Assembly: GCA_965198945.1 (NCBI GenBank)
Contig: CBDAQI010000005.1
Coordinates: forward strand, 1-64,000
From: Thermodesulfobacteriota bacterium
Lineage (GTDB): Bacteria > Desulfobacterota_D > UBA1144 > Nemesobacterales > Mycalebacteriaceae
Direction of reading: 5' to 3'
DNA: 64,000 nucleotides
Part shown: positions 27,594-47,728 of the stretch, piece after piece
How positions within the stretch are numbered: the first letter of the stretch is position 1
Layout of the letters: each line of letters begins with the position of its first letter
Made by a program: the position numbers and the translations under genes
Notes under the pieces: generated by a model
What the model saw: only the letters and a program-made list of their open reading frames with translations
Told to the model about the DNA's origin: nothing
Databases searched by the model: none

Positions 27594-29305
27594 GTGTCTG
27601 AACAGAAGAAATCCAAAGTAGAAACAATCAAAGAAAGCAGCAACTACCTGCGCGGAACCATCAGCGAAACACTTGCGGGCGATGACTCGCATTTTTCCAA
27701 TGAGGACTACCAGCTCCTCAAGTTTCACGGCATATACCAGCAGGACGATCGCGACCTGCGCCAGCGGCTTAAAAAAGAGGGAAAAGAACGCAAGTATATG
27801 TTCATGGTTCGCACCAAAAACCCCGGAGGGGGAGAACTTTCACCCCGGCAGTGGGAGGCGCTTTGCGAAGCGTCCGACCGGTATGCGGACGGAACACTGA
27901 GAATCACAACACGGCAGACCATACAGTTTCATGGAATCGGGAAAAAGAATCTGAAAAGCACGATGATGCACCTGAATGAAAATTTTGTTCCGACAAACGG
28001 CGCGTGCGGCGATGTGAACAGAAACACAATGTCAGGTCCCGTTTCGGATATAACCGGCACGGACGCATTTAATGCGCAGAAACTCGCGCGAGAAATATCA
28101 GAGAACCTCTCATTCAAAACAAGCGCCTACTACGATGTATGGATGGACGGGGAGATGCTGACAAAAGAAGAGGGGGGGGGGAACGAAGATGTTGAACCTC
28201 TTTACGGCAAATCTTATCTGCCGCGTAAGTTCAAAATCGGCATAGCCGAAGAGCATGACAATTCAGTTGATGTTCACACAAATGACATAGGCATAGTTCC
28301 CGTAATAAACGGAGAACTCAAAGGTTTTAACGTCCTTGTGGGAGGCGGTCTCGGCAGCCATCACAAACAGAAGCAGACTTTTCCCCGTCTCGCCGACCCG
28401 CTCGGCTTTGTCAGTGAAGACAGAATCCATACAACGCTCAAAGCCATACTTGAATTTCAGAGAGACAACGGAGACAGAGTCAACCGCAAGCATGCGAGGA
28501 TGAAATACGTGGTTGAGGAATGGGGAATTGACAAAGTGCGCGCTGAGATTGAAAAGAGGGTCGGATTCAATCTCGCGCCGGTTACTGATTTCTCTCTCCG
28601 CCAGCCGGAAAATCACCTTGGGTGGCACATGCAGAACAGCCCCGGACTTATGTATGTCGGAATATTTGTGGAAAATGGCAGGATTAAAGACACGGAGTTG
28701 AGCAAGGAGAAAACCTGCATAAGGGAGATTGTAAAAGAGTTCGGTCTGGGAGTCCGGCTGACCGCGCTTCAGAACATAATTCTCTCAAACATCCGAGAAG
28801 AAAATGTTGCGGAAATCAAAGAACGTCTGAAAAAAAGCGGTGGTAAGGACAGAGGATGAACACTCAAAACTGCGTCTCAACTCAATGGCATGTCCGGCTC
28901 TGCCGACTTGCGGACTTGCGCTCGCCGAAGCCGAGAGGTATATGCCGTCTCTGATTTCGGAACTGGAACGGATGGGATACGGCCGACGAGAGAATCAAAA
29001 TCAGAATGAGCGGGTGCCCGAATTCATGCTCGCGCCCGCCGGTTGCGGAGATAGGGATTATCGGAGCATCTCCCGGTAAATACAATATCTATCTGGGCGG
29101 GAACTTTGAGGGGACACGGCTGAACACGCTCTATGAGGAAATGGTTCCCGATGAAGAACTTGCAGACAGAATAGCGGGCTTCATAGATTTCTACAGAAAA
29201 AGCGGTGAGAGCGGCGAGGCGTTCGGGGACTTCTGCGACAGAGTGGGTTTTGAGAAAATACGAAAAGCAACGCGCCCGGAGGGAGTCGAACCCCCAACCT
29301 CCTGA
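27594..29305 (+). CDS. Sirohaem sulfite (or nitrite) reductase hemoprotein, CysI/Sir-like; two single-base frameshifts (~28841, ~28984)
   Basis: [61 protein letters not shown] across three consecutive ORFs. Confidence 0.88.
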
Positions 29306-29344
29306 TCCGTAGTCAGACGCTCTGTCCAGTTGAGCTACGGGCGC
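29271..29344 (-). tRNA. tRNA-Arg(ACG), CCA not encoded
   Basis: gcgcccgtagctcaactggacagagcg-tctgactACGgatcagg-aggttgggggttcgactccctccgggcgcg folds as a cloverleaf. Confidence 0.93.
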
Positions 29345-29437: not shown

Positions 29438-30052
29438 ATGGAAAAACTTGAAACGCTGCTTGACCGCGAGATTGACCTGTTTTTGTCCGAGGCGCGAGAG
29501 CTTACTGAAGTAAAAGCGCTTGTTTCGGGAAATTTGAGTAAATCTCAGTATAAGAAACTGCTGAGACTTTTCTGTTTTGTAGAGCAGATCAGCCACAGGG
29601 CGGTCAACACTGCGGCAATTTACGCGGGTGAAACCGGAGATGCCTACCTTGCGGGGCGGCTGGGCTCCTGCGCGGCGGGAGAGCTTGGACATGCGGAGTT
29701 GGCGCTTGAGGATTTGAGAGACCTCGGTGAAAAAAACGCAAAAATTCCGAAGGCGGAGAAGTGGGAAAGTGAACTGCTGAAAAAAGCGCGTGAGTTTCCG
29801 CCCGCGATTATAGGGCATTCATATCTGTTTGAAGGCGCGAGCGGGATTTTATTTCAGGATGCGGTTGTTCCGGAGAAAATGCCTGAGCGGTTTGTCGTTG
29901 TTCACGCAAAGGAAGACCCGGCGCACGCGCGGGCTATTAAGCGCACAATCAGGATTATGGAGAAGGAATTGAACGAAAAACAGTCTGAAGAGATTGTAAA
30001 ATTTGCCCGGAAAAGCGGGGAAAGGTTGATGAAAGTGTTTGAAGAAATGTGA
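29438..30052 (+). CDS. Haem-oxygenase-like (PqqC/CADD-fold) putative di-iron enzyme
   Basis: All-helical 204 aa with GELGHAELALEDL, YLFE and HAKEDPAH ligand-like motifs; GGAGG RBS. Confidence 0.65.
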   Translation: MEKLETLLDREIDLFLSEARELTEVKALVSGNLSKSQYKKLLRLFCFVEQISHRAVNTAAIYAGETGDAYLAGRLGSCAAGELGHAELALEDLRDLGEKNAKIPKAEKWESELLKKAREFPPAIIGHSYLFEGASGILFQDAVVPEKMPERFVVVHAKEDPAHARAIKRTIRIMEKELNEKQSEEIVKFARKSGERLMKVFEEM

Positions 30053-30156
30053 GAGATTCTACTATCTGAAACTTCAAATTTTTTTAAACGATTTTACAAT
30101 CTTCATTACATTTTTCTACATTTGCTCCCGATTCGTCCTGTTATTGCAGAGTTTTC

Positions 30157-30226
30157 CGTCATTGCCGCGAAAGCTTGTCCTCATGAAAGCATGTCCCCGT
30201 GAAAACGGGGACGGGCGTGAATCCGG
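30157..30226. repeat. Nested CGTC-type REP-like palindromes
   Basis: cgtcattgccgcgaaagc-ttgtcctcatgaaagc-atgtccccgtgaaaacggggac-gggcgtgaatccgg; the inner perfect hairpin gtccccgt-gaaa-acggggac is at 30193-30212. Confidence 0.65.
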
Positions 30227-30380
30227 ATAAACACCCATTTTTCACTCTTCAACTGCTTTTCCAATTCGCTTTACCTTTATTTCCGACTGTCAAGTTTATT
30301 CCTTTTCTCGTCTTGAATCCGTGTATAATTGCAATTGTAGACTGCAAAGGTCAAGTTCAATTAATTTATGGAGGATTAAA

Positions 30381-30749
30381 ATGTCTGAACTCAAACCGCT
30401 TGATATTAAAGTGCCCATCTTTGAACAAATCAAGACTGAAGAGGCGCCCGTTGTGCTTGTTAACATTTTTAATGTTGACGAGAAAGATATTCCCGCTCTC
30501 ATGAAAGCATGGGAAGATGATGCAAACTGGATGAAGAAACAGCCGGGTTACATTTCCACCCAACTGCATCGCGGTATCGCCGGCAGCACGGTCTTTATGA
30601 ATTATGCCGTTTGGGAATCTGTTGAGCATTTTCGCAACGCTTTCGCCAACTCTGAATTTCAGGAAAAAATAAAATCATATCCTTCGTCCGCAATAACTCA
30701 GCCTCATTTGTTTACAAAACTGTCAGTGCCCAATTTGTGCACAAAATAG
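30381..30749 (+). CDS. Antibiotic-biosynthesis monooxygenase (ABM) family protein
   Basis: PVVLVNIF, MKKQPGYISTQLHRG, NYAVWESVEHF; GGAGG RBS before the ATG at 30381. Confidence 0.85.
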   Translation: MSELKPLDIKVPIFEQIKTEEAPVVLVNIFNVDEKDIPALMKAWEDDANWMKKQPGYISTQLHRGIAGSTVFMNYAVWESVEHFRNAFANSEFQEKIKSYPSSAITQPHLFTKLSVPNLCTK

Positions 30750-30788
30750 TCAAACAAGATATCCAAGCCGGTCCGAAAAATGAACAAG

Positions 30789-30896
30789 ATTGTGTTTCAA
30801 GACGCAGTTTTTCGGAACTATGGAAAAGAAAAAACCGGAGAAATTGTTAAATTCTTCCGCAAAATCTTGGAAAAATGAATGAAAGTGTTTGTGGAA
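30789..30896 (+). repeat. Second, internally deleted copy of the 3' part of the HO-like gene
   Basis: IVFQDAVF matches ILFQDAVV (29846). EKTGEIVKFFRKILEK*MKVFVE matches KQSEEIVKFARKSGERLMKVFEE. Confidence 0.8.
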
Positions 30897-30901
30897 CCGG
30901 T

Positions 30902-30931
30902 TTGACAATATACCAATTTATGGGATATTGT
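30902..30931 (+). promoter_or_regulatory. TA promoter/operator: TTGACA plus an 11-bp inverted repeat
   Basis: ttgaca at 30902; acaatatacca-attta-tgggatattgt (1 mismatch) ends just before the toxin ATG. Confidence 0.65.
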
Positions 30932-30932
30932 A

Positions 30933-31202
30933 ATGAAGAAATGGAATATTCATCTAACAAGGAACGCCCGCAAACAGTTAGTAAATTTACCGAAAAAAAT
31001 TCAAGGGCTGGCGGACGATGCAATGGAAGATTTGACACGGCAGGGCGTCAACTTAAAAGGTTGGGATGTTCGGAAAACCGGCGATGATGAGTATCGCCTC
31101 CGCCTGAATTATCGCTACAGAATGCGTTACAGATTTATAAGAGAGAAGATTGTGGCTATTGAAGTATTTTATGTGGGACATCGCAAGGACACTTACAGAT
31201 GA
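30933..31202 (+). CDS. RelE/HigB-like toxin
   Basis: Basic 89-aa ORF: W.I.LT..ARKQL..LP, EYRLRL..RYRMRY, IEVFYVGHRKD.Y. Confidence 0.8.
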   Translation: MKKWNIHLTRNARKQLVNLPKKIQGLADDAMEDLTRQGVNLKGWDVRKTGDDEYRLRLNYRYRMRYRFIREKIVAIEVFYVGHRKDTYR

Positions 31203-31999
31203 GTAAAGAACTGACAATTCAGCATGGATTGGGGGATTTGGTTGTAAAGACTTTTGAAAAGATTAATTCCGTAAAAATGAAAAAAACCCTTCTTTCCGCT
31301 TTGGAAAATTACTTGGATGGCGAAGAGAGAATTCCGGCCTCAATATTCCGTCGTGAAGTTAGACGGGAAGCGGGTGATTTTTACGACACCCCCGGCTACA
31401 ACCTTCGGATATATCGGATACGCCGGGATTTTACTCAAGAGATGCTGGCAAAACTGATGAATTTAAGCAGAAAACGTATTTCTGAAATGGAGAACAACAA
31501 ACGCCCCATAGACAAAGCCACCGAGGAAAAACTGGCGAAAATCTTGAAATTTGACCGTGGTGATTTGGAGAAGCGCCGCATAAAAGACGAAGAAGACATA
31601 AAAACGGGCGAGAAGTTGAGTATTCACCATGACTTGGCGAATCTGGTTGTGGAACCTTTTGAAAAGATTGACTCCGCACGGCTGAAACAAACACTTCATT
31701 CCGCTCTGGACAACTATAGAGATGAGGAAAGAGTTTACAGTGATAGAGAGGAACTTATTCCCGCGTCCGTGCTCCTGCGGGAACCCGGAAAGGAAATCGG
31801 AGATTACGCCGATACTCCGGGTTTCAGCCTTCGGTTTTATCGCAAACGGCTGGATTTAACCCAGGCGGAATTGGCAAAAGAAACCAATATACGCCAAACT
31901 CATCTTTCCGAAATGGAAAACAATAAACGCCCGATAGGAAAAACCCTTGCTAAAAAACTTGCGAAAACGCTTAATTTTGATTACCGGAAATTATTATAG
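31199..31999 (+). CDS. XRE-HTH antitoxin made of two tandem ~130-aa units
   Basis: Both halves share L.I.H.L..LVV..FEKI.S...K.TL.SAL.NY.D.E...IPAS...TPG..LR.YR.R...TQ..LAK......SEMENNKRPI.K....KLAK.L.FD. Confidence 0.88.
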   Translation: MSKELTIQHGLGDLVVKTFEKINSVKMKKTLLSALENYLDGEERIPASIFRREVRREAGDFYDTPGYNLRIYRIRRDFTQEMLAKLMNLSRKRISEMENNKRPIDKATEEKLAKILKFDRGDLEKRRIKDEEDIKTGEKLSIHHDLANLVVEPFEKIDSARLKQTLHSALDNYRDEERVYSDREELIPASVLLREPGKEIGDYADTPGFSLRFYRKRLDLTQAELAKETNIRQTHLSEMENNKRPIGKTLAKKLAKTLNFDYRKLL

Positions 32000-32020
32000 T
32001 ATTTAAGAGATGTGGAAAGA

Positions 32021-32438
32021 ATGACAATAGATGTTAACTATCTTAACAAGTGCATCAGAGTTCTTGAAACGGGTATTGAGCGTCTGCAAGGCGGAGACGA
32101 TAAGGAACTTTACGAACTCCACTGCGCCGGGTGCGTTAAGGAATTTAAGTTAATTTTTTGAACAGAGCGGCAAACTGCTGAAAAAGCGTATAAGCGTGTA
32201 TTTTGCGACAAACAGGCAGGCGGACGATTTGAACTTTAAGGATGTTTTTCGCCATGCGGCAAAGCACAATCTGATTGATTCGGAGACTTGCGAGCGTTGG
32301 ATGAAATACCGCGACAACCACAATGACACGGCGCACAATTACGGTGAAAAGTTTGCCAACGAAACTTTGAAACTTCTGCCTTCTTTTGTTGAAGACGCGA
32401 AATCTCTGTCAAAAATGATTGAAGAAGGAGAGAAATGA
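32021..32438 (+). pseudogene. HEPN (HI0074-like nucleotidyltransferase substrate-binding) toxin, inactivated
   Basis: CVKEFKLIF, frameshift in a T-run at ~32154, then EQSGKLLKKRI...FRHAAKHNLI...W..YRDNHNDTAHNYG; the R of the RX4H motif is His. Confidence 0.8.
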
Positions 32439-32723
32439 CTGCAAAATTGGATTTAAAGGAAAGGCATAAAAAGGATATTGAACGCCTTATCAGGCAACAC
32501 CTTCCCGGTGTTGAGGTATGGGCATATGGAAGCAGGACAAACGGCAGAAGCCACGAAGGGAGCGATTTAGATTTGGTTTTGAGAACACAAGACCTAATCC
32601 CCGTTGATTATGACAACTTTTTAGCGCTCAAAGAAGCGTTAACCGAGTCTACCATTCCATCCGAGACTGCCGGAAAGTTTTCACAGTGAAATTGAAAAAG
32701 AGCATGTCGTTTTTATTGGGTGA
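32435..32723 (+). pseudogene. MNT minimal nucleotidyltransferase antitoxin, internal deletion and frameshift
   Basis: VWAYGSR...GSDLDLV; after ESTIP the frame shifts to RLPESFHSEIEKEHVVFIG*, with the usual intervening strand missing. Confidence 0.78.
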
Positions 32724-32755
32724 AGCGGGAAGATTTGGCAAGCAAGAAAAAATGT

Positions 32756-32821
32756 ATAAGAAAAGCAATCGCAGGAAAACTTGCGAAAATACTGAACTTT
32801 GATTATATGAAATTGCTGCAG
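32756..32821 (+). repeat. Duplicate of the last 22 codons of the double-HTH antitoxin
   Basis: IRKAIAGKLAKILNFDYMKLLQ versus IGKTLAKKLAKTLNFDYRKLL* (31934-31999); 47/66 nt identical, ungapped, by hand count. Confidence 0.85.
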
Positions 32822-32825
32822 GGAG

Positions 32826-32885
32826 AAAACTTGCCGCAAAAGCGGCGTGTGTTTAATGAAGGTGTTTGAGGAAATTTGAGAGATT
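32826..32885 (+). repeat. Third copy of the HO-like gene 3' end
   Basis: RKSGVCLMKVFEEI*gagatt versus RKSGERLMKVFEEM*gagatt (29998-30058). Confidence 0.85.
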
Positions 32886-34491
32886 AATTTGTTGCAATTT
32901 TTTTTATAAAAACCTTATATCCAAAGCCCTCTAATTCTTTTACAATATTTTTTAAATTCACTTTGCTAAAAAAAGGTATATCTAATGACTTCTGAGATTT
33001 GCTAATTATCGCAAATACGATTTTATACTGAGACACATCTGGTTTATTTTCAGGATGGTCAAATTTGAAATCCTCAGGCAATTTTTCATTCAATCTCTCT
33101 CTAAACACTTCGTAATTCAAAAATAACTCCGCAGAAATAAGACCTTGGGCAAACAAATGACTCAAAACTGACGAGGACCCATAATGTTTGACATGAATTA
33201 AGTGCTTGTTTGTTGAAAACAAATCGCAAAATTCAACTTTTTGATTCACTCCGCCACAACTTATGAGTTTTCTATCCATGTTGCAGATATAATCACCCAT
33301 TTCTTGTGAAACTCTCTCGTTATAGTGACCTTCATGTTCAGCCGAATTACAATCTGGCAAATCAATATCTAAATTTTGCCGGATAAAAGAAAGAAAAAAA
33401 TCAGAAATATCCCTGTCAAAATCAACATTAATCTCATACCACTTGCCATTGCTGAGTATAAAAGTTTGTTCCTCTTTCCTCACTTCGCAATACAAACATT
33501 TGTAAACTCCCCACGAGTACAAAGCTTTTTCGGAAGAAGAATCTATAGCGTCAATTGAATGAGTCTTTAAAGTTTTCAGAGAAATTTCCCTTTGAGTTTC
33601 AGAAAGAAAAAAAACATATTTTTGTAAATGAATGTCATCCCCAAATGATTTCTTTTTGCCAAGCTTGAACTCAGAAACTCTTTCCCATTCTATGACTTCC
33701 GGAATTGACATCCACGTCTTGTCAAAATCTTCATTCTTAATTTTTTCAACTAGTGATTCATCTAATTTTTGAACGATTTCAGAATCTTTAATTTCAAAAG
33801 AATAATCAATCCAACCAAAATCTTTCTTGTAATCATCTCTCGTGTATCTTTTGTAACATTCACTAAGAAACTCTTGTATAGATAAGTAGTTTATATTAAC
33901 CGTAACGATTAGCGAATCCTTTCCAGAGACAGTTTGACCAAAATCATCATAAATTGATTTTCCAGTGATTCCTTGAATCAAATCTTGCTCAATATCTACA
34001 CCAAAATCTCCAAATGTACCCTCTTTAGTAATCTGTTCTTTTGAAATCTTGGGAGTTAGTGCCATGCTTTTTTTATCTATGCTCCGAAGATTTTCTGAAT
34101 TAATAGAATTAAGAGCAACTTTCAACCCGAATCTTTCTTCATAAACTCCGGGGTTGAACATTGTATAACCATATCCAAAACACAAAGCGAAAACCCTGTT
34201 CTCGGACTTAACAAGAAATACTGCTTTTGGACTGGAATTAAATATTTTTATCTTGTCTTTGGTATCCAGCAATGATGATCCGAAAAAGAAATTTTGCACC
34301 CATAGGGGAGAATGTTGTTCGGAATCCGCATAGTACAAAACCCCTATTGCAGTTTTAGAAAAAGATTGAATTTCCTCTTTTCTTAACCTTTCAAAATCTT
34401 TGAGAATTTCTTCATGTTGAGAACAAGAAGATTTAATCAAATATATTGACAACCTATTTTTTCGCGTACCTACTCGTTTTTCTCCTGCCAA
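32884..34491 (-). CDS. TIGR04141/DUF6119-like sporadically distributed protein with a putative C-terminal nuclease
   Basis: LSIYLIK, FALCFGYG, EERFGLKVALN, GKWYEI, EGHYN, VEFCDLF..LIHVK, SSVLSHLFAQG, IPFFSKVNL (family recalled, not searched); AT-rich. Confidence 0.75.
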   Translation of the reverse strand: MAGEKRVGTRKNRLSIYLIKSSCSQHEEILKDFERLRKEEIQSFSKTAIGVLYYADSEQHSPLWVQNFFFGSSLLDTKDKIKIFNSSPKAVFLVKSENRVFALCFGYGYTMFNPGVYEERFGLKVALNSINSENLRSIDKKSMALTPKISKEQITKEGTFGDFGVDIEQDLIQGITGKSIYDDFGQTVSGKDSLIVTVNINYLSIQEFLSECYKRYTRDDYKKDFGWIDYSFEIKDSEIVQKLDESLVEKIKNEDFDKTWMSIPEVIEWERVSEFKLGKKKSFGDDIHLQKYVFFLSETQREISLKTLKTHSIDAIDSSSEKALYSWGVYKCLYCEVRKEEQTFILSNGKWYEINVDFDRDISDFFLSFIRQNLDIDLPDCNSAEHEGHYNERVSQEMGDYICNMDRKLISCGGVNQKVEFCDLFSTNKHLIHVKHYGSSSVLSHLFAQGLISAELFLNYEVFRERLNEKLPEDFKFDHPENKPDVSQYKIVFAIISKSQKSLDIPFFSKVNLKNIVKELEGFGYKVFIKKIATN

Positions 34492-35132
34492 TACTTTCTT
34501 ACCCCCTTAAAGTGTTTTATACGCTCATTGATCTTGAGAATTTCCTTTGGGTAGAAATCCAGAAGATTATCACACATCTCAATCATCCAGTTTTTACGCT
34601 TATTTTTTGGGGTAAGAGTAACAGTATTGGCATTGGCAATCTGGATTTGTCCCCAACCCAACGCACCAAGTGTGAGACAATCCCAAGAAACAAATTCTAT
34701 CGGGACAAAAGTGACCTTATCAATTAGGATTTTCAAATTCTCTATTCTGTAATTCACTTTCAATATACAGAAGTAATTTTTATCATCCTCGTAAAAACGT
34801 GACAGTCTCTCAACCGATGTGAGGTTCGGCATATTAAACTTTGTATCAAGCCGATGAGTTTTAACATCAATAACGTAATAGAAATCGTCCCTGTCGGCAA
34901 AAACAAGATCTGCCATAGCACGCCGCGCAAATTGTGAAGAATACTCTTTTGATAAATCTCCCAAAATCCTACCAAAATTTTCGACAATGATATTTTCTAT
35001 TGCGTCACCAACAGCGCGGGGACTGTTGATTGTTCTGGAGGAAAGGAAATCTGCTTGTTCATTAAGAAATTCTCTGATTTCTTTTTCAAGCTCTTTGTGG
35101 GTATTTGTATAGAAAATTTTACTTTTCAACAT
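34470..35132 (-). CDS. Putative Type II restriction endonuclease (PD-(D/E)XK)
   Basis: GDAIE...MADLVF...IDVKTH motif; coupled to the MTase by a TAATG overlap. Confidence 0.7.
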   Translation of the reverse strand: MLKSKIFYTNTHKELEKEIREFLNEQADFLSSRTINSPRAVGDAIENIIVENFGRILGDLSKEYSSQFARRAMADLVFADRDDFYYVIDVKTHRLDTKFNMPNLTSVERLSRFYEDDKNYFCILKVNYRIENLKILIDKVTFVPIEFVSWDCLTLGALGWGQIQIANANTVTLTPKNKRKNWMIEMCDNLLDFYPKEILKINERIKHFKGVRKYWQEKNE

Positions 35133-36148
35133 TATGGAAGTTTGTTACTAAATAACGGCATTTGGCTTTCTGATTTATTGCCGTTCTTGCCGTTGCCATT
35201 CAGTTGCTCATTGAGCGTATTCCGCTCCCAGAAAACACCGTTGCAGTAACCTTGTATCGTTTTGTCTGACTCCGCCATTTCAAGGCGTTTCTCAGCAAGG
35301 CAGCAGTAAAGTTCATCTATCTCTACTCCCACATAGTTTCTTCCCAGTTTCTTTGCCACAACCGATGTGGTGCCGGAACCGAGAAAAGGGTCAAAAACGA
35401 CATCTCCGTGCTTTGAACTTGCAAGAAGGATTTTCGCAACGAGTTTTTCAGGTTTTTGTGTCAGGTGGTCGGTATTTTCTGGCATAGACCAAAATGGAAC
35501 AGTAATGTCGGTCCAAATGTTTGAGGGATATGTCAGGCGGTATCTGCCGTTTCCTTCTTCATTCCAGTCTTTCGCTTTGCCGGAACCATCACGATATGGA
35601 GCGATGACCTTTCTTTTTACTTTTACGGCATTAACATCAAAGTGATAATCTTTTGACATTGTGCAAAACCAAATATCCTCGGAGCTGTTTTTCCAATTCG
35701 TTTTTGCTCCCCGTCCTTTTTCCCGTTCAAAGGTTATGCGATTTTGAATCTCAAAATATTTTCCGGCAACATTGAAAATCGCGCCCGATGACCTCCAGTC
35801 TCCGCAAATATAGATTGATGAGGTTGATTTCAAAAGGCGAACCATTCTGCCGACCCATGAGTCAAGCCATTTCTCATATTTTTCCGACTCCATTTCTTTG
35901 AAAGTTGTGAGATTGAATGTTTTGTTTAGATTGTAAGGAGGGTCTACAAAAACGACATCAATAAAACTATCGGGCAGATGATCCAGCACTTCAAAAATGT
36001 CTTGGTTTATTGTTTTGTTCAAAACATCATCAACAGAGACCGAACCGCCAATTTGAACAAAACGCTTTTTATATCTAATTCGCTCTCTGTCATCCAAAGT
36101 AATAGTGCGATTGCGTGGAGCACGCTGTTTTACTAAGTTTGAAACCAT
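35132..36148 (-). CDS. DNA methyltransferase, N4/N6, beta class
   Basis: DPPY precedes VFDPFLGSGTT; H.TQKPEKL. Confidence 0.92.
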   Translation of the reverse strand: MVSNLVKQRAPRNRTITLDDRERIRYKKRFVQIGGSVSVDDVLNKTINQDIFEVLDHLPDSFIDVVFVDPPYNLNKTFNLTTFKEMESEKYEKWLDSWVGRMVRLLKSTSSIYICGDWRSSGAIFNVAGKYFEIQNRITFEREKGRGAKTNWKNSSEDIWFCTMSKDYHFDVNAVKVKRKVIAPYRDGSGKAKDWNEEGNGRYRLTYPSNIWTDITVPFWSMPENTDHLTQKPEKLVAKILLASSKHGDVVFDPFLGSGTTSVVAKKLGRNYVGVEIDELYCCLAEKRLEMAESDKTIQGYCNGVFWERNTLNEQLNGNGKNGNKSESQMPLFSNKLP

Positions 36149-36486
36149 CTCTAAATCAAATCATCAACTTCCACACTACTAGTAATGGAATCTGATGTTT
36201 CCAACAGTATATCAGACAACAAAATTCCAAGGGGCTTTAATCTGACTTCAACTCAAAAGCCAACAATTTGAAACCCTTCATACTTGTAAACTCTTTTACC
36301 ATAAACGGTAACACTTTTTATCAATACAAACCGCTCAAAACGCAACCGGGCACTGGAATTACGGTTGACTCAATACACGGTTTCTCAGTTTAGTTCACAA
36401 GCGCGGGAACCCGATAAAAGTTGACCGGAGCACTTGTCTGCCAAACCACCGTCTATTTTTATGCAGAATATTAAGAACTTCCCTAC

Positions 36487-37530
36487 CTACCCCCCGAACC
36501 AGCCGTTCAAAACTGCCGAAAGCAGAACAATTTGCGGCACCGCCACAAGCGGAATAAAAAGAGACAGTTTCCACGAGCGGGTTGTGTCTTTCACGGCCAT
36601 AATTTCGGTGTAATCGGTAGCCGCGCCCGACATGAGAAAAGCAAACGCATTGCCCGGCGCATGGGCGCGCGTCAGCAAATCAGCCGCGATGGGAGTTGAA
36701 CCCTCGGAGCAAACCTCAATTACCACAGCGGCTATAAGGGTCAGCCCCAGTCCGGCAAGGGTCGGACCGAAAAGCTCTTCATAGCCTATGTGTGTGCCAA
36801 AAACTCTTATGACGGCAGCGAGAAGCACTCCGAGAAGAAGCCAGCGCAAAACGGGTTTTGAATCCCTGAAAGCGGATTTGACGAGGAACAAGGCTGTGTT
36901 CCTGTTCAGACGTATCTCTGAAAGTGATGAAAAAACCATTTTCAGTCCTCCGGACACGGGACTGACAGTGTTGGGATTGGGCGGCAGAACGGATTTTTTT
37001 TCAAGACTGACAAAAACAAGACCCGTCATAAACGCCACCGCCATTGAAAGAATAACAAAAGCAGCCGTCCACCATATACCCACAAGCGCGATGAGAACCA
37101 AGGTGAGTGAAAGTGAGTTCCAGGGACTCGCCAGAAGAAAAGCCGCAATCTGCCCCATGCTCGCGCCGCGCTCATAAAGCTTCATGCCAAGCAGAACTAT
37201 GCCGTGATTGCAAACATCAAAAAATACTCCGGCAAAAACTGCACGCAAAATACCGCGGGAACTTGAGCCGTTGCCAAGAATGGAAGAAACCGCCTCACGA
37301 GGCACAAGAGACAGTAAAGCTATTGAAACAACGCCAAGGGCAACTCCGGGCAGAATCGTGACCGTTATTTCACGCACTGCAAAGGTCAAATCACTGAACC
37401 ACGGACTTTGTGAAGAGAAAAAATCCGCCGCATAAAGAAAAACCACCGCAGACAGACACCCCCAGAAAAGGTAGTCAAAAGATTCGGAACTGTGACAACC
37501 GCCGGTATGAGAGTGATGAGATTCCCTCAT
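36487..37530 (-). CDS. Predicted permease (DUF318/ArsP-like), His-rich N-terminus
   Basis: Multiple TM segments; duplicated VC..G motifs (DVCNHG, EVCSEG) and AFLLASP / AFLMSGA. Confidence 0.8.
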   Translation of the reverse strand: MRESHHSHTGGCHSSESFDYLFWGCLSAVVFLYAADFFSSQSPWFSDLTFAVREITVTILPGVALGVVSIALLSLVPREAVSSILGNGSSSRGILRAVFAGVFFDVCNHGIVLLGMKLYERGASMGQIAAFLLASPWNSLSLTLVLIALVGIWWTAAFVILSMAVAFMTGLVFVSLEKKSVLPPNPNTVSPVSGGLKMVFSSLSEIRLNRNTALFLVKSAFRDSKPVLRWLLLGVLLAAVIRVFGTHIGYEELFGPTLAGLGLTLIAAVVIEVCSEGSTPIAADLLTRAHAPGNAFAFLMSGAATDYTEIMAVKDTTRSWKLSLFIPLVAVPQIVLLSAVLNGWFGG

Positions 37531-42654: not shown

Positions 42655-43392
42655 ATGCCGTCAAACCGGAAAAAACCTCTCTATAAAAGAATTCTTCTGA
42701 AAATCGGCGGTGAAGCCCTTCAGGGCAAATGCGAATCCGGCATAGACACTGAGACTTTGGACAAAGTTTCGGCCGAACTTAAAGAGCTGACCTCGCTCGG
42801 AATTGAAATCGCTCTTGTAATAGGCGGCGGCAATTTCTTCAGAGGCAGTTCCGACAGTGCGCGTGGTATGGACCGTTCCACCGCGGACTATATGGGAATG
42901 CTCTCAACGGTTATAAACGCGATAGCGCTTCAGGACTCTCTTGAAAAACAGGGAGTTGACACAAGGGTGCAGAGCGGCCTTGAAATAAAGCAGGTTGCCG
43001 AACCTTTCATCAAACGCCGGGCTCTGCGGCATATTGAAAAAGGCAGAGTTGTGATTTTCGGGGCGGGCACGGGCAATCCGTTCTTCACAACGGACACCGC
43101 TGCGAGCTTGCGGGCTCTTCAAATAGGCGCGGACGTTGTGCTCAAAGGGACTAAGGTTGACGGCATATATGACAAAGACCCGAAAAAACACAAAGATGCA
43201 AAGATGTTCAGCGAGCTTTGCTATATGGATGTTATCCAGAAAGAGCTTGATGTGATGGACACGACCGCAATTTCCCTGTGCATGCAGAGCGGTATTCCGA
43301 TAGTGGTTTTTAATTTGTTCAAACCGGGAAATATAAATAAGGTTATAAGCGGTGAAAAAATAGGAACAAAAGTTTGGAACGGCCCAAAATGA
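42655..43392 (+). CDS. pyrH: UMP kinase
   Basis: [35 protein letters not shown]. Confidence 0.97.
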
Positions 43393-43955
43393 GCGAAACT
43401 TCGGCGGACATAAAAAAACAGACTTCGGACAGGATGAGCAAAACTCTCTCGGCTCTTGAGTCCGAATTGTCAAAACTGCGGACGGGCAAGGCCTCAACCG
43501 GTCTGGTTGAAGGGCTTGAGGTTGATTACCACGGCGCAAAGATGCCTTTTAATCAAATTGCTTCAATCAACGCTCCCGACCCGCAAACGATTCTAATTCA
43601 GCCATGGGACGAAACGGTGATAGGTGAAATAGAAAAAGCAGTGAATCAGTCAGACCTCGGACTCACTCCGGTGAGAGACGGCAAAACGGTCCGGCTTTCC
43701 ATTCCGCCTTTGAGCGGAGAGAGAAGAAAAGAGCTTATAAAAGTCGCCGCCAGAATGGCGGAAGACCACCGTGTTTCAATAAGGCAGACACGAAAAGACT
43801 TGAACACAAAAATAAAAGCCATGGAAAAAGCGGGCGAGTTATCCGAAGACGAAAGCAAAAAAACGCTCAGCGACATTCAGAAATCCACCGATGAGTTTAT
43901 CACCCGTATAAACTCAATTCTTCAAAAGAAAGAAAAAGACATTATGGAAGTTTAG
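43389..43955 (+). CDS. frr: Ribosome recycling factor
   Basis: [31 protein letters not shown]. Confidence 0.96.
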
Positions 43956-44018
43956 GGGGCGGTCTCCATACACTTCCTCTTTCCACCTAAAGCATAGCAT
44001 ACGAAAACTTGGCCGACA

Positions 44019-44067
44019 AAACATCCTTGAAAATCTACTATCAAATGGTAGATTTTCAAGGATGTTT
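44019..44067. promoter_or_regulatory. Perfect 20-bp inverted repeat covering the promoter and start codon of the AAA ATPase gene
   Basis: aaacatccttgaaaatctac-N9-gtagattttcaaggATGttt; contains TTGAAA and TGnTAGATT. Confidence 0.8.
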
Positions 44068-45240
44068 GACAGATATTTACAAAATATCATTTTGGAATTG
44101 CTGACCACAAATCCGGCTGTAGTGCTGACGGGGCCGCGGCAGATTGGAAAGACAACTTTTGCAAAAGAGTTTTCCAAAAGTTTCAAAGCAGTCTACCGGG
44201 ACTTGGAAAATTCCCGGGACCTTAAGCAGGTAAAGGACATTCAATTTTTTACAGAGCAATATGCGGAGAATCTGATTATTCTGGATGAGGTTCAGAGGTT
44301 GCCGGAAATTTTCCCTGAAATCAGAGGTATCATAGACCGTAACAGGCGTGCTGGACGGGAAAACTGTCAATTTCTTTTTCTCGGTTCCGCTTCGCCGGAC
44401 CTGCTGAGACAGACGAGCGAGAGTCTTGCGGGAAGAATTTCTCATGTTGAGCTTGCTTCTCTCAATTTGCTGGAACTGGACGAAAAATTTCACGACTTGC
44501 TCTGGCTGAAAGGGGGATTCCCGGAAAGTCTTAAACGTAATGAGCAAGACAGTTTTAACTGGCGTTCCAGTATGGTCACAACTTACCTTGAAAGAGACAT
44601 TCCGCAGTTCGGCTTTCGTATTCCGGCTGAAACAATGAGGCGTTTGTGGATGATGCTCTGCCACTATCCGGGCGGCATTTTGAATTCCGCCATGTTGTCC
44701 GGCAGTCTGGGAATCAGTGATAAAACCGTCATACGCTACCTTGATATTCTCGTGGATCTACTGCTTGTGAGAAGATTGCAGCCGTGGCACACAAACACAA
44801 AAAAGCGTCTTGTGAAGTCTCCGAAAATTTACATACGAGACTCCGGGTTGTTGCATATGCTTTTGAATATAAAGACAAAAGACGATTTGCTCAATAATCC
44901 CATCTGCGGACAAAGCTGGGAGGGGTTTGTAATTGAGAATCTGATAAACAGTTCAAGGGAAAGCCATTATCCGTATTTCTACAGAACCCAGGCCGGAGCT
45001 GAGATAGACTTGCTTCTTTGCAGAGGCATTACTCCTGAAATTGCCATTGATATAAAACTGTCTTCAAACCCGAAAACGCGAAAGGGATTTGACATAGCCT
45101 GTGATGATTTGAATGTCCGGCACCGTTTTGTGGTTTATCCCGGAGAGGAAACATATTTATTAAAACCAAAAACTTACGCGGTTCCGCCCGCGGAATTATG
45201 CGGGTGGCTCTGGAACAGAGCAAAAGGGGAAATTCATTGA
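44062..45240 (+). CDS. AAA_14 ATPase with winged HTH and DUF4143 domain
   Basis: GPRQIGKTT, ILDEVQ, LGSAS, ESLAGR, GGFP, YLERDI, KSPKIYIRDSGL, YRTQAGAEIDL. Confidence 0.9.
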   Translation: MFDRYLQNIILELLTTNPAVVLTGPRQIGKTTFAKEFSKSFKAVYRDLENSRDLKQVKDIQFFTEQYAENLIILDEVQRLPEIFPEIRGIIDRNRRAGRENCQFLFLGSASPDLLRQTSESLAGRISHVELASLNLLELDEKFHDLLWLKGGFPESLKRNEQDSFNWRSSMVTTYLERDIPQFGFRIPAETMRRLWMMLCHYPGGILNSAMLSGSLGISDKTVIRYLDILVDLLLVRRLQPWHTNTKKRLVKSPKIYIRDSGLLHMLLNIKTKDDLLNNPICGQSWEGFVIENLINSSRESHYPYFYRTQAGAEIDLLLCRGITPEIAIDIKLSSNPKTRKGFDIACDDLNVRHRFVVYPGEETYLLKPKTYAVPPAELCGWLWNRAKGEIH

Positions 45241-45258
45241 ATTCAATGTGGAAATTTG

Positions 45259-45363
45259 GACGGGAAAATAAAAAATGCTCGCTGACATTCAGAAATCCAC
45301 ATATAAGTTTATTTCACGCATAAACTCGCTTCTTGAGGAGAAAGAAAAATATATTAGTTAGGG
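45259..45363 (+). repeat. Degenerate duplicate of the frr 3' end
   Basis: gctcgctgacattcagaaatccacatataagtttatttcacgcataaactcgcttcttgaggagaaagaaaaatatatta versus 43865-43944 gctcagcgacattcagaaatccaccgatgagtttatcacccgtataaactcaattcttcaaaagaaagaaaaagacatta. Confidence 0.9.
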
Positions 45364-45373
45364 TTAGGTGTAT

Positions 45374-47728
45374 TTATATTTTGAAATGACTGACATATGG
45401 CTCATATTCTAATTCCTCTTTTTCTTCTCTTTCAACTTTGCTTTGCAAAATCTCTTTCACAAATACCGACATTCCACTCAAAAGAGTTCTTTTTGGAGAA
45501 AACCGATCCTCTGAAAGGGCAAGCAGAAAAACTCCTTTCCGTGCGCGGGTAATTGCCACATAAAACAATCGTCTTTCTTCCGCATTAGGAAACATTACAT
45601 CTTCTTCAAGAACCATATTTAGAACAGGGTCATTCTGTATTCCGGAAGGAAAACCATAACCATTAACGTCAAATTCATTGCCAAGAATAATAACCCAATC
45701 CTTCTCAATGCCCTTGGACTGATGGATAGTGCTGAATTCTATGGAAAGACCTTTTAATTCAGCCTCCTTCTTTAATTCGTTCCAGTCAGCGGGCTTTGAA
45801 TGTTTGTAGCGCCCCAAAACAAGGCATTCTTTACTGGCCTGACTCTGAAGAGAAATTCTATCAATTGCATATTGCAAAGCTTTCTTGCGTTGTATTGCTG
45901 ACCGGCCATGTTGAATAACTCTTATTGGTTTTGCTTTTTTATTGAAGTCTATTCTGGAAGAGACTTCTTTTTTTAACTGCATTGGATTTTTTGTAATAAA
46001 AATTCTACTAAAATCAGCAATTTGCTGAGAAAAGCGAAAAGTCTCGTTCAAATCAGTACGGCACATTGCGCCGACATACTCATCAAAATGCGTAATTAAA
46101 TTTACGTTAGCCCCCTGAAATGAGTAAATTGACTGCCAATCATCACCAACACAAAACAGCCTTGCATCTCTAACCTGCTCCCGCAGCTCCAAAAGCATTT
46201 TTAGCCTTGCAAGTGTTATATCCTGATACTCGTCCACCAAAATATATTTAAATTGGGACCGCCACTCACCCCGTTTCAAACATTGGGTTCCGCCAACAAT
46301 CATATCCGTGTAATCAATTTCACCATTTTTGCCGAGTTCTCGCTCATAATTGTCTCTGAAAAATTCAAACAATTCCAAAAACACAATATCTCTATTAGAA
46401 TTTGCCCGAGACTTAAGATAGTCTCCGGAAATTGAATTCTCTCTGCACAAAGAAAGAAACTGGTCTATCAATTTGATAAAATTTGGAATAGGAGTGGAAC
46501 CCTGCTTGATAAATTTCTCAATGTCTTGTCCTGAAACAGGTTTTTTTTCAACTCCATATTGAAAAAGTTTTGTTTCAAGGGCATTCACCAGTCCGTCTTG
46601 CCGTCTTGCCTCATAACTATAAGTCTCTACAAGTTTGGTATTGTTTTCGCGATGAGTTTTTCTTTTCCAGTCAATACCTGCACTGTATTTTTCTTTACTG
46701 ACTCCGGGAGCGGTATTGCCATCCTCATCTATACCAAAATGTTCAATCCATAAATCGTAGTCCGGCAGGTAAAAGTCCGGACGATAATTCCCTGGACATG
46801 GGTATTTTTTTTCATATTCCCATTTCACCCCGCTGAGAATCAGCCAGTTTGCTATTTGGACTTCTTCATAGCTCTTAAGTTCTTTGCCATCAAGGCTTTT
46901 CAGCCCTGCAACATATTGATTCTTTTCCAAATACTCAATTTTCTCTTCCACATTTTCTTCTGGATCTCCCTCAAATAGATAAGTGGAAAAGTATTGAGAA
47001 AACAAATCCCTTTGGTGGTGATTTTCAAACATATTTTTTAACGTTTTTTCAAAAAAAGGCTTGGCATCATTAGCAAGACCGCTTACTTTCGGAGACCTGC
47101 CCTGAACTTTTTCTACAATTTTGCGCCCAAGGGCATGAAGCGTATAAACAGGGATACTGAAATTTATTTCTTTTTTTAATCTTTTCTCAATCTCTCTTTG
47201 CGCATCTACGTTGTATACGACAATAAGAATCTCTTGCGGCTCTGCAATTTTTTGGTTCAGAAGATAAGAAACCTTGCCAAGAATTGTTCGAGTTTTTCCC
47301 GAACCCGCGCCAGCATTAACTAAATTAGCATCTTCGTCTCTGACAACTGCAAGCCGCTGAGATTCTGTCAAACCCAGACCATCAAAAAAATTTTTTGACT
47401 GCACAAGTCTTTTTTCAACAAATCTTTCGTTGATTTCATCTATAAAGGCTCTGCTTTCCAGCAAACGCTTTGCTTTCCCGAATTTGGCTCGCAAATTTGC
47501 TTTCAGAAAAATAAAATCAAAAAATGAATTACGAAAACAACTGAATTCTGCCTCAGCAAGTTGTCTCTCAGCTTTTTTCCTGTTTAGATATTCGCCACTA
47601 GCCTCTCTTTTAAGTTTTTGCTCAATATCCTCAAATTTAGCAATAAAGCACTCTGCCTCCCGGCATCTGCTCTTTCTTTTATAGTAGTAAAAAACCGCTA
47701 TTGGAACAATGGCAAAGATAATTTCCAT
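45374..47728 (-). CDS. UvrD/helicase IV-like SF1 helicase with an N-terminal TM anchor and an inserted nuclease-like domain
   Basis: AGAGSGKT, LVDEYQD, VGDDWQSIY, STIHQSKG.E, EERRLFYVAITRA; insert KSYEE..IANWL...YRPDFYL...IEHFG. Confidence 0.88.
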   Translation of the reverse strand: MEIIFAIVPIAVFYYYKRKSRCREAECFIAKFEDIEQKLKREASGEYLNRKKAERQLAEAEFSCFRNSFFDFIFLKANLRAKFGKAKRLLESRAFIDEINERFVEKRLVQSKNFFDGLGLTESQRLAVVRDEDANLVNAGAGSGKTRTILGKVSYLLNQKIAEPQEILIVVYNVDAQREIEKRLKKEINFSIPVYTLHALGRKIVEKVQGRSPKVSGLANDAKPFFEKTLKNMFENHHQRDLFSQYFSTYLFEGDPEENVEEKIEYLEKNQYVAGLKSLDGKELKSYEEVQIANWLILSGVKWEYEKKYPCPGNYRPDFYLPDYDLWIEHFGIDEDGNTAPGVSKEKYSAGIDWKRKTHRENNTKLVETYSYEARRQDGLVNALETKLFQYGVEKKPVSGQDIEKFIKQGSTPIPNFIKLIDQFLSLCRENSISGDYLKSRANSNRDIVFLELFEFFRDNYERELGKNGEIDYTDMIVGGTQCLKRGEWRSQFKYILVDEYQDITLARLKMLLELREQVRDARLFCVGDDWQSIYSFQGANVNLITHFDEYVGAMCRTDLNETFRFSQQIADFSRIFITKNPMQLKKEVSSRIDFNKKAKPIRVIQHGRSAIQRKKALQYAIDRISLQSQASKECLVLGRYKHSKPADWNELKKEAELKGLSIEFSTIHQSKGIEKDWVIILGNEFDVNGYGFPSGIQNDPVLNMVLEEDVMFPNAEERRLFYVAITRARKGVFLLALSEDRFSPKRTLLSGMSVFVKEILQSKVEREEKEELEYEPYVSHFKI

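Follow-up and report, generated by a model that had tools for sequence, protein, structure and literature searches.

Insertion with long target duplication has been described for restriction-modification (R-M) systems. According to Furuta, Abe & Kobayashi (2010; PMC2853133), such systems carry no mobility genes, have on either side repeats longer than 30 bp in which a start or stop codon is often included, and are found for the most part in species with natural competence, by a mechanism given there as not known; the same paper cites Nobusato et al. (2000) for the first cases. A related design is found in the effector-immunity arrays of type VI secretion systems (T6SS) in Vibrio cholerae, where new modules displace older ones behind a conserved gene and for which homology-facilitated illegitimate recombination has been proposed (Kirchberger et al. 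2017, PMC5361080); that paper ties such arrays to Rhs C-terminal displacement (Jackson et al. 2009, as cited there). Our literature search for toxin-antitoxin (TA) cassettes with gene-end repeats of this kind gave nothing relevant. Here we analyse a 64,000-nucleotide stretch of DNA from a Thermodesulfobacteriota bacterium (the window), in which TA and defence genes are packed between an HO-like gene and an ArsP-type permease gene. On balance, we lean towards the view that the interval from the HO-like gene to the macro-domain and permease genes is a variable TA/defence island that grew through several insertions, with the end of the adjacent gene duplicated each time.

It is the layout of the island that carries this view. 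Two copies of the HO 3′ end bracket the RelE-HTH(-HEPN-MNT) block, the live HO end and the older copy flank the segment with the ABM monooxygenase gene, and the HEPN-MNT pair is enclosed between the live HTH end and a copy of that end, an arrangement that would be best read as the outcome of serial and nested insertions. Direct repeats longer than 30 bp, with a single target in relatives whose site is empty, as in insertion with long target duplication, were found for three genes (HO, gdhA and rsmD). The window is contig C5 of a 1.39-Mb genome in 14 contigs that is 95% complete. The order of genes given in an earlier note on this DNA (anchor, ABM, copy, RelE/HTH with HEPN-MNT, copy, DUF6119/restriction endonuclease/methyltransferase, permease) agrees with the open reading frame (ORF) and Pfam maps, and the features are as follows.

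29271..29344, minus strand: tRNA-Arg(ACG), left core flank (ARAGORN; Rfam tRNA, 64.2 bits).
29438..30052, plus strand: live HO-like gene, 204 aa, the anchor, whose last ~60-210 nt are the duplicated target (PF14518 weak, 23.9 bits, below cut-off).
30053..30788, plus strand: ABM segment, a spacer with a dispersed repeat (30153-30227) resembling repetitive extragenic palindromic (REP) elements, and the ABM monooxygenase gene (30381-30749; PF03992, 1.2e-8).
30787..30896, plus strand: displaced HO 3′-end copy 1, with an internal deletion and in-frame stops, solid part 30839-30891 (alignment, shuffles).
30902..30930, plus strand: promoter-like site TTGACA-16-GATATT overlapping the palindrome CAATATACCA-N5-TGGGATATTG (10/12 consensus match).
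30933..31202, plus strand: small RelE/ParE-like ORF, 89 aa, overlapping the next gene by 4 nt (orthologue in relative G004).
31199..31999, plus strand: Xre-type HTH protein of two tandem units, 266 aa, presumed antitoxin (HTH_3, 1.1e-22, two stretches).
32012..32689, plus strand: HEPN (NTase_sub_bind, split at the T6 run 32153-32158) and MNT (truncated C-terminus) pair (Pfam).
32762..32825, plus strand: copy of the HTH gene 3′ end (…LAKILNFDYMKLLQ; score 43, 0/1000 shuffles).
32826..32885, plus strand: displaced HO 3′-end copy 2 (RKSGVCLMKVFEEI and stop), abutting the stop of the DUF6119 gene (alignment, shuffles).
32884..36148, minus strand: DUF6119/TIGR04141 gene, putative restriction endonuclease, N6/N4 DNA methyltransferase (Pfam, PADLOC).
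36240..36410, minus strand: decayed macro-domain gene remnant, site of a claimed faint HO copy (alignment to G002 and G003).
36487..37530, minus strand: ArsP_1-type permease, right core flank (PF03773, 2.5e-23).

A tRNA-Ser lies beyond the permease, and Rfam gave nothing above gathering score on the region except two tRNAs. The GC content is ~0.50 in the flanks and 0.31-0.45 over 30060-36400.

How does this locus compare with the described systems? With the R-M insertions of PMC2853133 it shares short gene blocks that lack integrase and transposase, direct repeats above 30 bp in length that occur in a single copy at empty sites, and a target gene that stays intact. Unlike those insertions, the repeat-flanked cargo consists here of TA pairs, an ABM gene and DUF4143 ATPases, whereas the one R-M block has no repeat; the events are stacked and nested at one gene end; and the repeats are old (70-89% alike), compared with mostly more than 90% in the tables of that paper. 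With the T6SS/Rhs arrays the locus has in common a conserved upstream homology anchor, older modules and 3′-end stubs pushed downstream, and the lack of an integrase. However, the displaced 3′ ends described in PMC5361080 are variable toxin domains with immunity genes, whereas the anchor here is of a housekeeping type, its end is just duplicated, and the cargo is unrelated to it.

The HO-like gene has an orthologue in 29 of the 41 related genomes searched, that of the window included, and shares 81-85% amino acid identity with its five same-genus orthologues. It was aligned locally to each claimed copy of its end, and the score was set against 1000 dinucleotide shuffles. Copy 2 (32826-32885), proposed in the earlier note, is real: 49/61 positions are identical with one gap, the score is 58, none of the 1000 shuffles reached it, and blastn gives an E value of 1.7e-9. 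In copy 1, proposed at 30789-30896, the 3′ part stands (30839-30891, 40/53 identical to 29989-30041, score 41 against a shuffle mean of 19.7 with sd 2.4, 0/1000 shuffles equal). Its 5′ part (‘IVFQDAVF’, 30787-30812) is not significant alone, with 67/1000 shuffles as good against the HO gene of the same genome; it occupies the same collinear position in all six HO genes of the genus, beats 300/300 shuffles against that of G001, and is probably real as judged from these alignments. The faint copy placed at 36378-36486 is a chance match (13/15 identical, score 20, 279/1000 shuffles as good) that lies in the macro-gene remnant, so that displaced HO ends number two, not three or four as had been counted. 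A third short remnant considered between the HTH stop and the HEPN start (32000-32024) was also rejected (302/1000 shuffles), its likeness to G001 stemming from the HEPN start. The copies are unequal in length, at about 110-210, 60 and about 30 nt. Directly 5′ of copy 2 we found a further repeat that the earlier note had overlooked, the copy of the HTH antitoxin gene end listed above, which is homologous to the intact HTH_a end in G004. Altogether, the HO tail has been copied twice in the genome of the window and once in G004, the antitoxin tail in the genome of the window, and the macro tail in G003. Within HO copy 2, positions 32832-32847 form a terminator-like hairpin (TGCCGC-AAAA-GCGGCG) followed by a T-rich stretch, with a weaker matching hairpin in the live HO end.

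In a sister genus (g8), the HO and permease genes are convergent neighbours about 590-610 nt apart in 8/8 genomes and, because it is seen in all of them, this compact state is probably ancestral. Within the genus of the window, the interval is different in every one of the six genomes compared (that of the window, G000, and G001 to G005, at ~70-90% nucleotide identity). An array invariant across relatives would have spoken against repeated insertion, and the comparison that the earlier note had called for shows that it is not invariant. The five relatives carry between HO and permease the following.

G002: 812 nt, macro gene only.
G003: 3.3 kb, with a 214-aa ORF, a UvrD-like helicase and a macro gene.
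G005: 5.2 kb, with a Trypsin-TPR protein, a PifA-like KAP NTPase and a Bro-N protein.
G001: 6.3 kb to the next core gene, with HEPN-MNT, NERD, two large unknown ORFs, and an unannotated 113-aa ORF beside an HTH-Panacea antitoxin.
G004: up to the contig end, with HEPN, two MNT genes, HTH, an HO-end copy, RelE and HTH.

No permease is present in the 18-kb locus of G001. The two HTH genes of G004 are 82% alike and its two MNT genes 81% alike. In G005, the trypsin-TPR gene of the island (L024, 4696-5712) contains about ten 102-nt tandem repeats (TPR units) that are 88-92% alike. Metagenome scans for further versions of the locus returned none in the first round and one (L028) in the second, with coordinates nearly those of the G003 locus; because this near-match was all that they added, the comparison rests on six genomes and, given their number and divergence, the insertion events can neither be dated nor ordered with confidence.

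The joints between blocks recur among these genomes. The older HO copy and the RelE promoter are contiguous both in the genome of the window (30896/30902) and in G004 (L025, 5074-5127), and in G003 and G005 the live HO end is joined directly to remnants of that promoter. Because the joint between HO end and promoter is also found in G004, G003 and G005, the HO-RelE adjacency appears to be old. In the genome of the window, the live HO end plus the ABM segment sits upstream of the old HO end, and the joints of G003 and G005 serve as the unfilled state for the ABM insertion. A joint between HTH end and HO end is found in both the genome of the window (32825/32826) and G004 (5067/5074); since the second HO copy follows the HTH end in both, these two genomes have the RelE-HTH(-HEPN-MNT) block framed by HO-end copies. 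On the far side of its UvrD-like helicase gene, G003 has a copy of the macro gene end that is 43 nt long (34/43 identical, 0/1000 shuffles), a layout that, from its sequence, is the mirror image of that at the HO locus.

Might local rearrangement have produced these joints? According to this explanation, a tandem duplication ran from inside HO to the HTH end, and the extra copies were whittled by deletion and overwritten, which would make the HO and HTH copies joints of a duplication and not scars of insertion. The joint between HTH end and HO end is indeed what a tandem of HO end, promoter, RelE and HTH would give, G004 has nearly that layout, and within the genus the RelE-HTH and HEPN-MNT modules were found at the HO locus only. 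We nevertheless regard such an origin of the whole island as unlikely, because it leaves unexplained the ABM segment, the G003 helicase between macro-end copies, and the foreign cassettes at gdhA, rsmD, frr and a ctaB-like gene (see below), where the sites of relatives are empty or otherwise filled.

The ABM segment is probably the youngest insertion of the island. The ABM gene was found in the genome of the window only (0/40 relatives), and the segment has a GC content of 0.36-0.42 compared with about 0.50 in the core. Its spacer holds the REP-like repeat (30153-30227, …GTCATT.CCGTGAAAGC.TGTCC.C.TGAAAGCATGTCCCCGTGAAAACGGGGA…) with a GTCCCCG/CGGGGAC hairpin; blastn gave 23 further matches to it on six other contigs of the genome, and an 81-nt query had no match in the five same-genus genomes. 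Downstream of HO copy 1, the sequence TTGACA-16-GATATT before RelE is the best promoter-like match in the region, as predicted by consensus alone, and the stop codon of the copy falls inside its TTGACA box. In G004, the MNT stop codon lies in a TTGACA box in the same way. The 25-nt palindrome that overlaps the site is 96% conserved between the genome of the window and two places in G004 (L025, 4662-4690 and 5101-5127) and is likely the operator of the antitoxin, a prediction made from the sequence. The RelE/ParE-like ORF itself has no Pfam or NCBIfam match; its G004 orthologue is 58% identical and matches ParE_toxin at 2.8e-4, below cut-off. The two units of the Xre-HTH protein are 65% alike at the DNA level, and G004 has single-unit genes. 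The HEPN-MNT pair is probably decayed, as read by frame comparison with intact homologues of 138 and 104 aa in G001.

The recurring separators led the earlier note to call the array integron-like. Chromosomal integrons and clusters of attC sites lacking integron integrases (CALINs) do resemble it in their small, variable, TA-rich cassettes with a recurring separator, and TA cassettes are usual integron cargo. The array is not an integron, however. There is no IntI, the separator is the end of a coding gene whose copies vary in length, and the cassettes face both ways: instead of single promoterless co-oriented genes, the blocks comprise two to four genes apiece, a block of three is encoded on the opposite strand, and at least one block has a promoter-like site of its own, before RelE. 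Folding of both strands as single-stranded DNA revealed no attC-like hairpin common to the three HO ends. The fold z-scores of the anchor (-2.4/-0.2) and copy 2 (-0.8/-1.6) are no better than those of shuffles, and only copy 1 folds well, through its own sequence. Integrase, transposase and resolvase domains were found in 0/32 ORFs by a Pfam scan of the HO loci of five genomes (12 ORFs in that of the window and 3, 7, 4 and 4 in G003, G001, G005 and G004; the 812-nt interval of G002 was left out). Two Phage_integrase matches exist on other contigs of the genome of the window; their best models are XerC/XerD (277.7/268.4 and 123.4/157.8 bits), and the integron-integrase model gives 114.6 and 80.4 bits on them, where the cut-off is 265. 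The search of this genome turned up no serine recombinase. A loose dif-like probe had no match in the island, which is a weak negative. That the HO-end copies are attC-type sites of a true integron-like system with a cassette integrase is thus extremely improbable.

The pattern is not peculiar to the HO anchor and, as far as the repeats tell, recurs at other genes of the same genome. A self-comparison of the genome, together with a scan in which 1,935 ORF ends were compared with the 8 kb on their flanks, yielded candidate pairs, besides weaker matches on, for example, C11, C4, C12 and C3. Eight pairs were inspected, 6/8 of which fit the order gene end, cassette, gene end. The pair at 100-103 kb of contig C1 consists of paralogous genes, and that at 219-222 kb of C1 looks like tRNA-like stretches, as read from ORF translations; both were set aside. 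The six are as follows.

frr end: 43858-43944 repeated at 45270-45356 (plus strand) around a DUF4143/AAA_14 ATPase gene (44062-45240); 69/87 identical (Pfam RRF, DUF4143).
gdhA end: HicB-HicA between repeats; 51/59 identical.
UbiA/ctaB-like end: Xre-RES between repeats; 111/130 identical.
rsmD first 289 nt: Gp49-type toxin, 127-aa ORF and glyoxalase between repeats; 256/287 identical.
hsdR N-terminal part: second DUF4143 ATPase between repeats; 79% of 165.
hisB 5′ part: two unknown ORFs between repeats; 92-94% identical.

These repeats are direct and imperfect, measure 58-289 bp and span the start or stop of a gene; at the five loci compared (all but hsdR), the repeat ends 0-11 nt from the start or stop of the intact gene. 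Pfam scans found no mobility genes in the inserts. The gdhA site of G003 is empty, with the same downstream gene after about 30 nt, and the rsmD cassette is absent in 5/5 relatives. Empty sites are thus known for HO, gdhA and rsmD, and repeats alone for frr, ctaB-like, hsdR and hisB. The gdhA 3′ end is a second cassette hotspot of the genus (C1 291456-293358 in the genome of the window; L056-L060): it is followed by HicBA there and in G004, by a NucS-like nuclease with its own 140-nt copy of the gdhA end in G001 and by an HSDR_N-like protein in G005, and it is nearly empty in G002. When the frr, gdhA, ctaB and rsmD loci of the relatives were compared with themselves, only this G001 copy and an unrelated 39-nt repeat in G005 appeared. 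A truncated UvrD-like ORF (45374-46471, minus strand) follows the frr stretch (43374-45356) after its second repeat.

How could such a layout arise? The incoming DNA would carry a cassette joined to a stretch of the neighbouring gene's end, tens to hundreds of bp long. The carried piece would recombine with the resident gene, probably anchored by homology, either through a Campbell-type single crossover of a circularised fragment or through homology-facilitated illegitimate recombination. This would leave the gene intact, with the cassette behind it and then a partial, displaced copy that borders on the ancestral flank and later decays. If the cargo is addictive or defensive (TA pairs, ATPases), its loss through recombination of one repeat with the other would be selected against, which would account for the kind of cargo that is left. 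All repeats are at least 43 nt, which should be long enough for homologous recombination. The genome of the window encodes ComEC and DprA, which is weak support as most control genomes carry both. A single crossover through a short shared segment and a long target duplication at insertion give the observed layout equally well.

Campbell-type insertion-duplication and elements that bring a replacement 3′ end, such as e14 and phage 21 in icd, leave the same order of intact gene, insert and displaced partial gene-end copy, and direct repeats of a gene 3′ end with the intact gene on one side are the trace of such elements, as of cis-mobilizable ones. The island might accordingly have grown, in the manner of prophage-like elements in gene ends, by tandem accretion of small elements whose attP carried the HO 3′ end and whose integrases were later lost or acted in trans, and the cassette content does vary among relatives. 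We hold this to be unlikely, though: no integrase domain was seen in the five scanned versions of the island, the genome has only XerC/D-like recombinases, repeat lengths and left boundaries differ between events with no fixed att core, and at least nine target genes (HO, HTH and macro here, six elsewhere) would require many specificities.

Several observations weigh against growth of the island by insertions of this kind. Among the six genomes, each live copy has its displaced counterpart, and not any orthologue, as its nearest match and, because both copies of a pair are closest relatives, duplication in situ at insertion fits as well as a donor-derived copy. The differences between copies are distributed over codon positions as 26/23/50, between neutral decay and purifying selection. 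Since no other locus of the genus was found to hold the RelE-HTH and HEPN-MNT modules, local tandem duplication and not import could account for some of the HO and HTH copies. The earlier note had proposed repeated insertion, each event leaving a copy of the anchor; an interval refilled repeatedly, with displaced HO ends, bears this out in part, but the DUF6119/R-M block (32884-36148) departs from it, as no direct or inverted repeat flanking it was found. The Xre-RES cassette also stands behind the ctaB-like gene in G001, G002 and G004 with no detectable repeat. The assembly has frameshifts beside homopolymers in the HEPN and sulfite reductase genes and, because it may carry homopolymer errors, the ‘decayed’ gene calls are uncertain. 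Finally, no event has been seen directly: among contigs from three public runs of one study, run X1, which may be the sample of origin, reproduces the array in two contigs, both breaking at the REP-like repeat, and no alternative joints between repeat copies appear in these contigs, which cannot reveal rare excised forms.

The closeness of live and displaced copies is also what a single target would give if a nuclease, encoded by the cassette (R-M- or TA-linked) or by the host, made staggered or resected breaks at gene ends and fill-in repair duplicated the target. Furuta et al. (PMC2853133) suggest a common property of R-M systems, such as double-strand breakage, behind their insertions. Most repeat-flanked cassettes here (ABM, HicAB, Xre-RES, RelE-HTH) nevertheless encode no DNA nuclease, and the one R-M block has no repeat, so that we give break-driven insertion a low probability, on a par with tandem accretion by lost integrases.

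The R-M block itself has domain matches (PF19614, 7.8e-144; PF01555, 5.9e-42; PADLOC MTase_II, 3.7e-67), with a weak HincII-like match at 0.0065, and has a low GC content of 0.31-0.38 across most of its length. Next to it, 36240-36410 aligns with the macro gene of G003 at 69% over 123 nt (E 1.4e-8), matching the 3′ part of a gene that is intact in G002 and G003 (PF01661, 2.1e-26 in G003). To the left of the island, the sulfite reductase homologue (27594-29305) is spread over three frames, compared with 569 aa in one frame in G003, and one of the shifts lies beside an A7 run near 28830; it is either a pseudogene or the product of a homopolymer sequencing error. Elsewhere in the genome, contig C8 (13.4 kb) is made of tandem units of about 2 kb that are 92-99% alike, and C10 has a run of 462-nt repeats at 8.1-12.3 kb.

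How do TA and defence cassettes move with no transposase or integrase nearby? This old question is what the locus addresses, as it stacks several events, its relatives keep intermediate states, and the layout of gene end, cassette and displaced gene end is concrete and testable. It would mean that insertion with long target duplication is not confined to R-M systems and applies to TA pairs and further small cargo as well. More tentatively, and with less confidence than we place in the growth of the island by insertion, the small TA/defence cassettes of this streamlined lineage, which is poor in integrases, may constitute a mobile class that is recombinase-free and carries fragments of neighbouring gene ends: a cassette would pop out via its repeats and enter a related genome anew through a single crossover at the same gene. 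Cassette arrays with a repeated separator need not be integrons. If the idea is true, an array resembling that of an integron, yet with neither integrase nor attC, would be built up as cassettes entered again and again at one gene end, and this may be a general route for the growth of defence islands.

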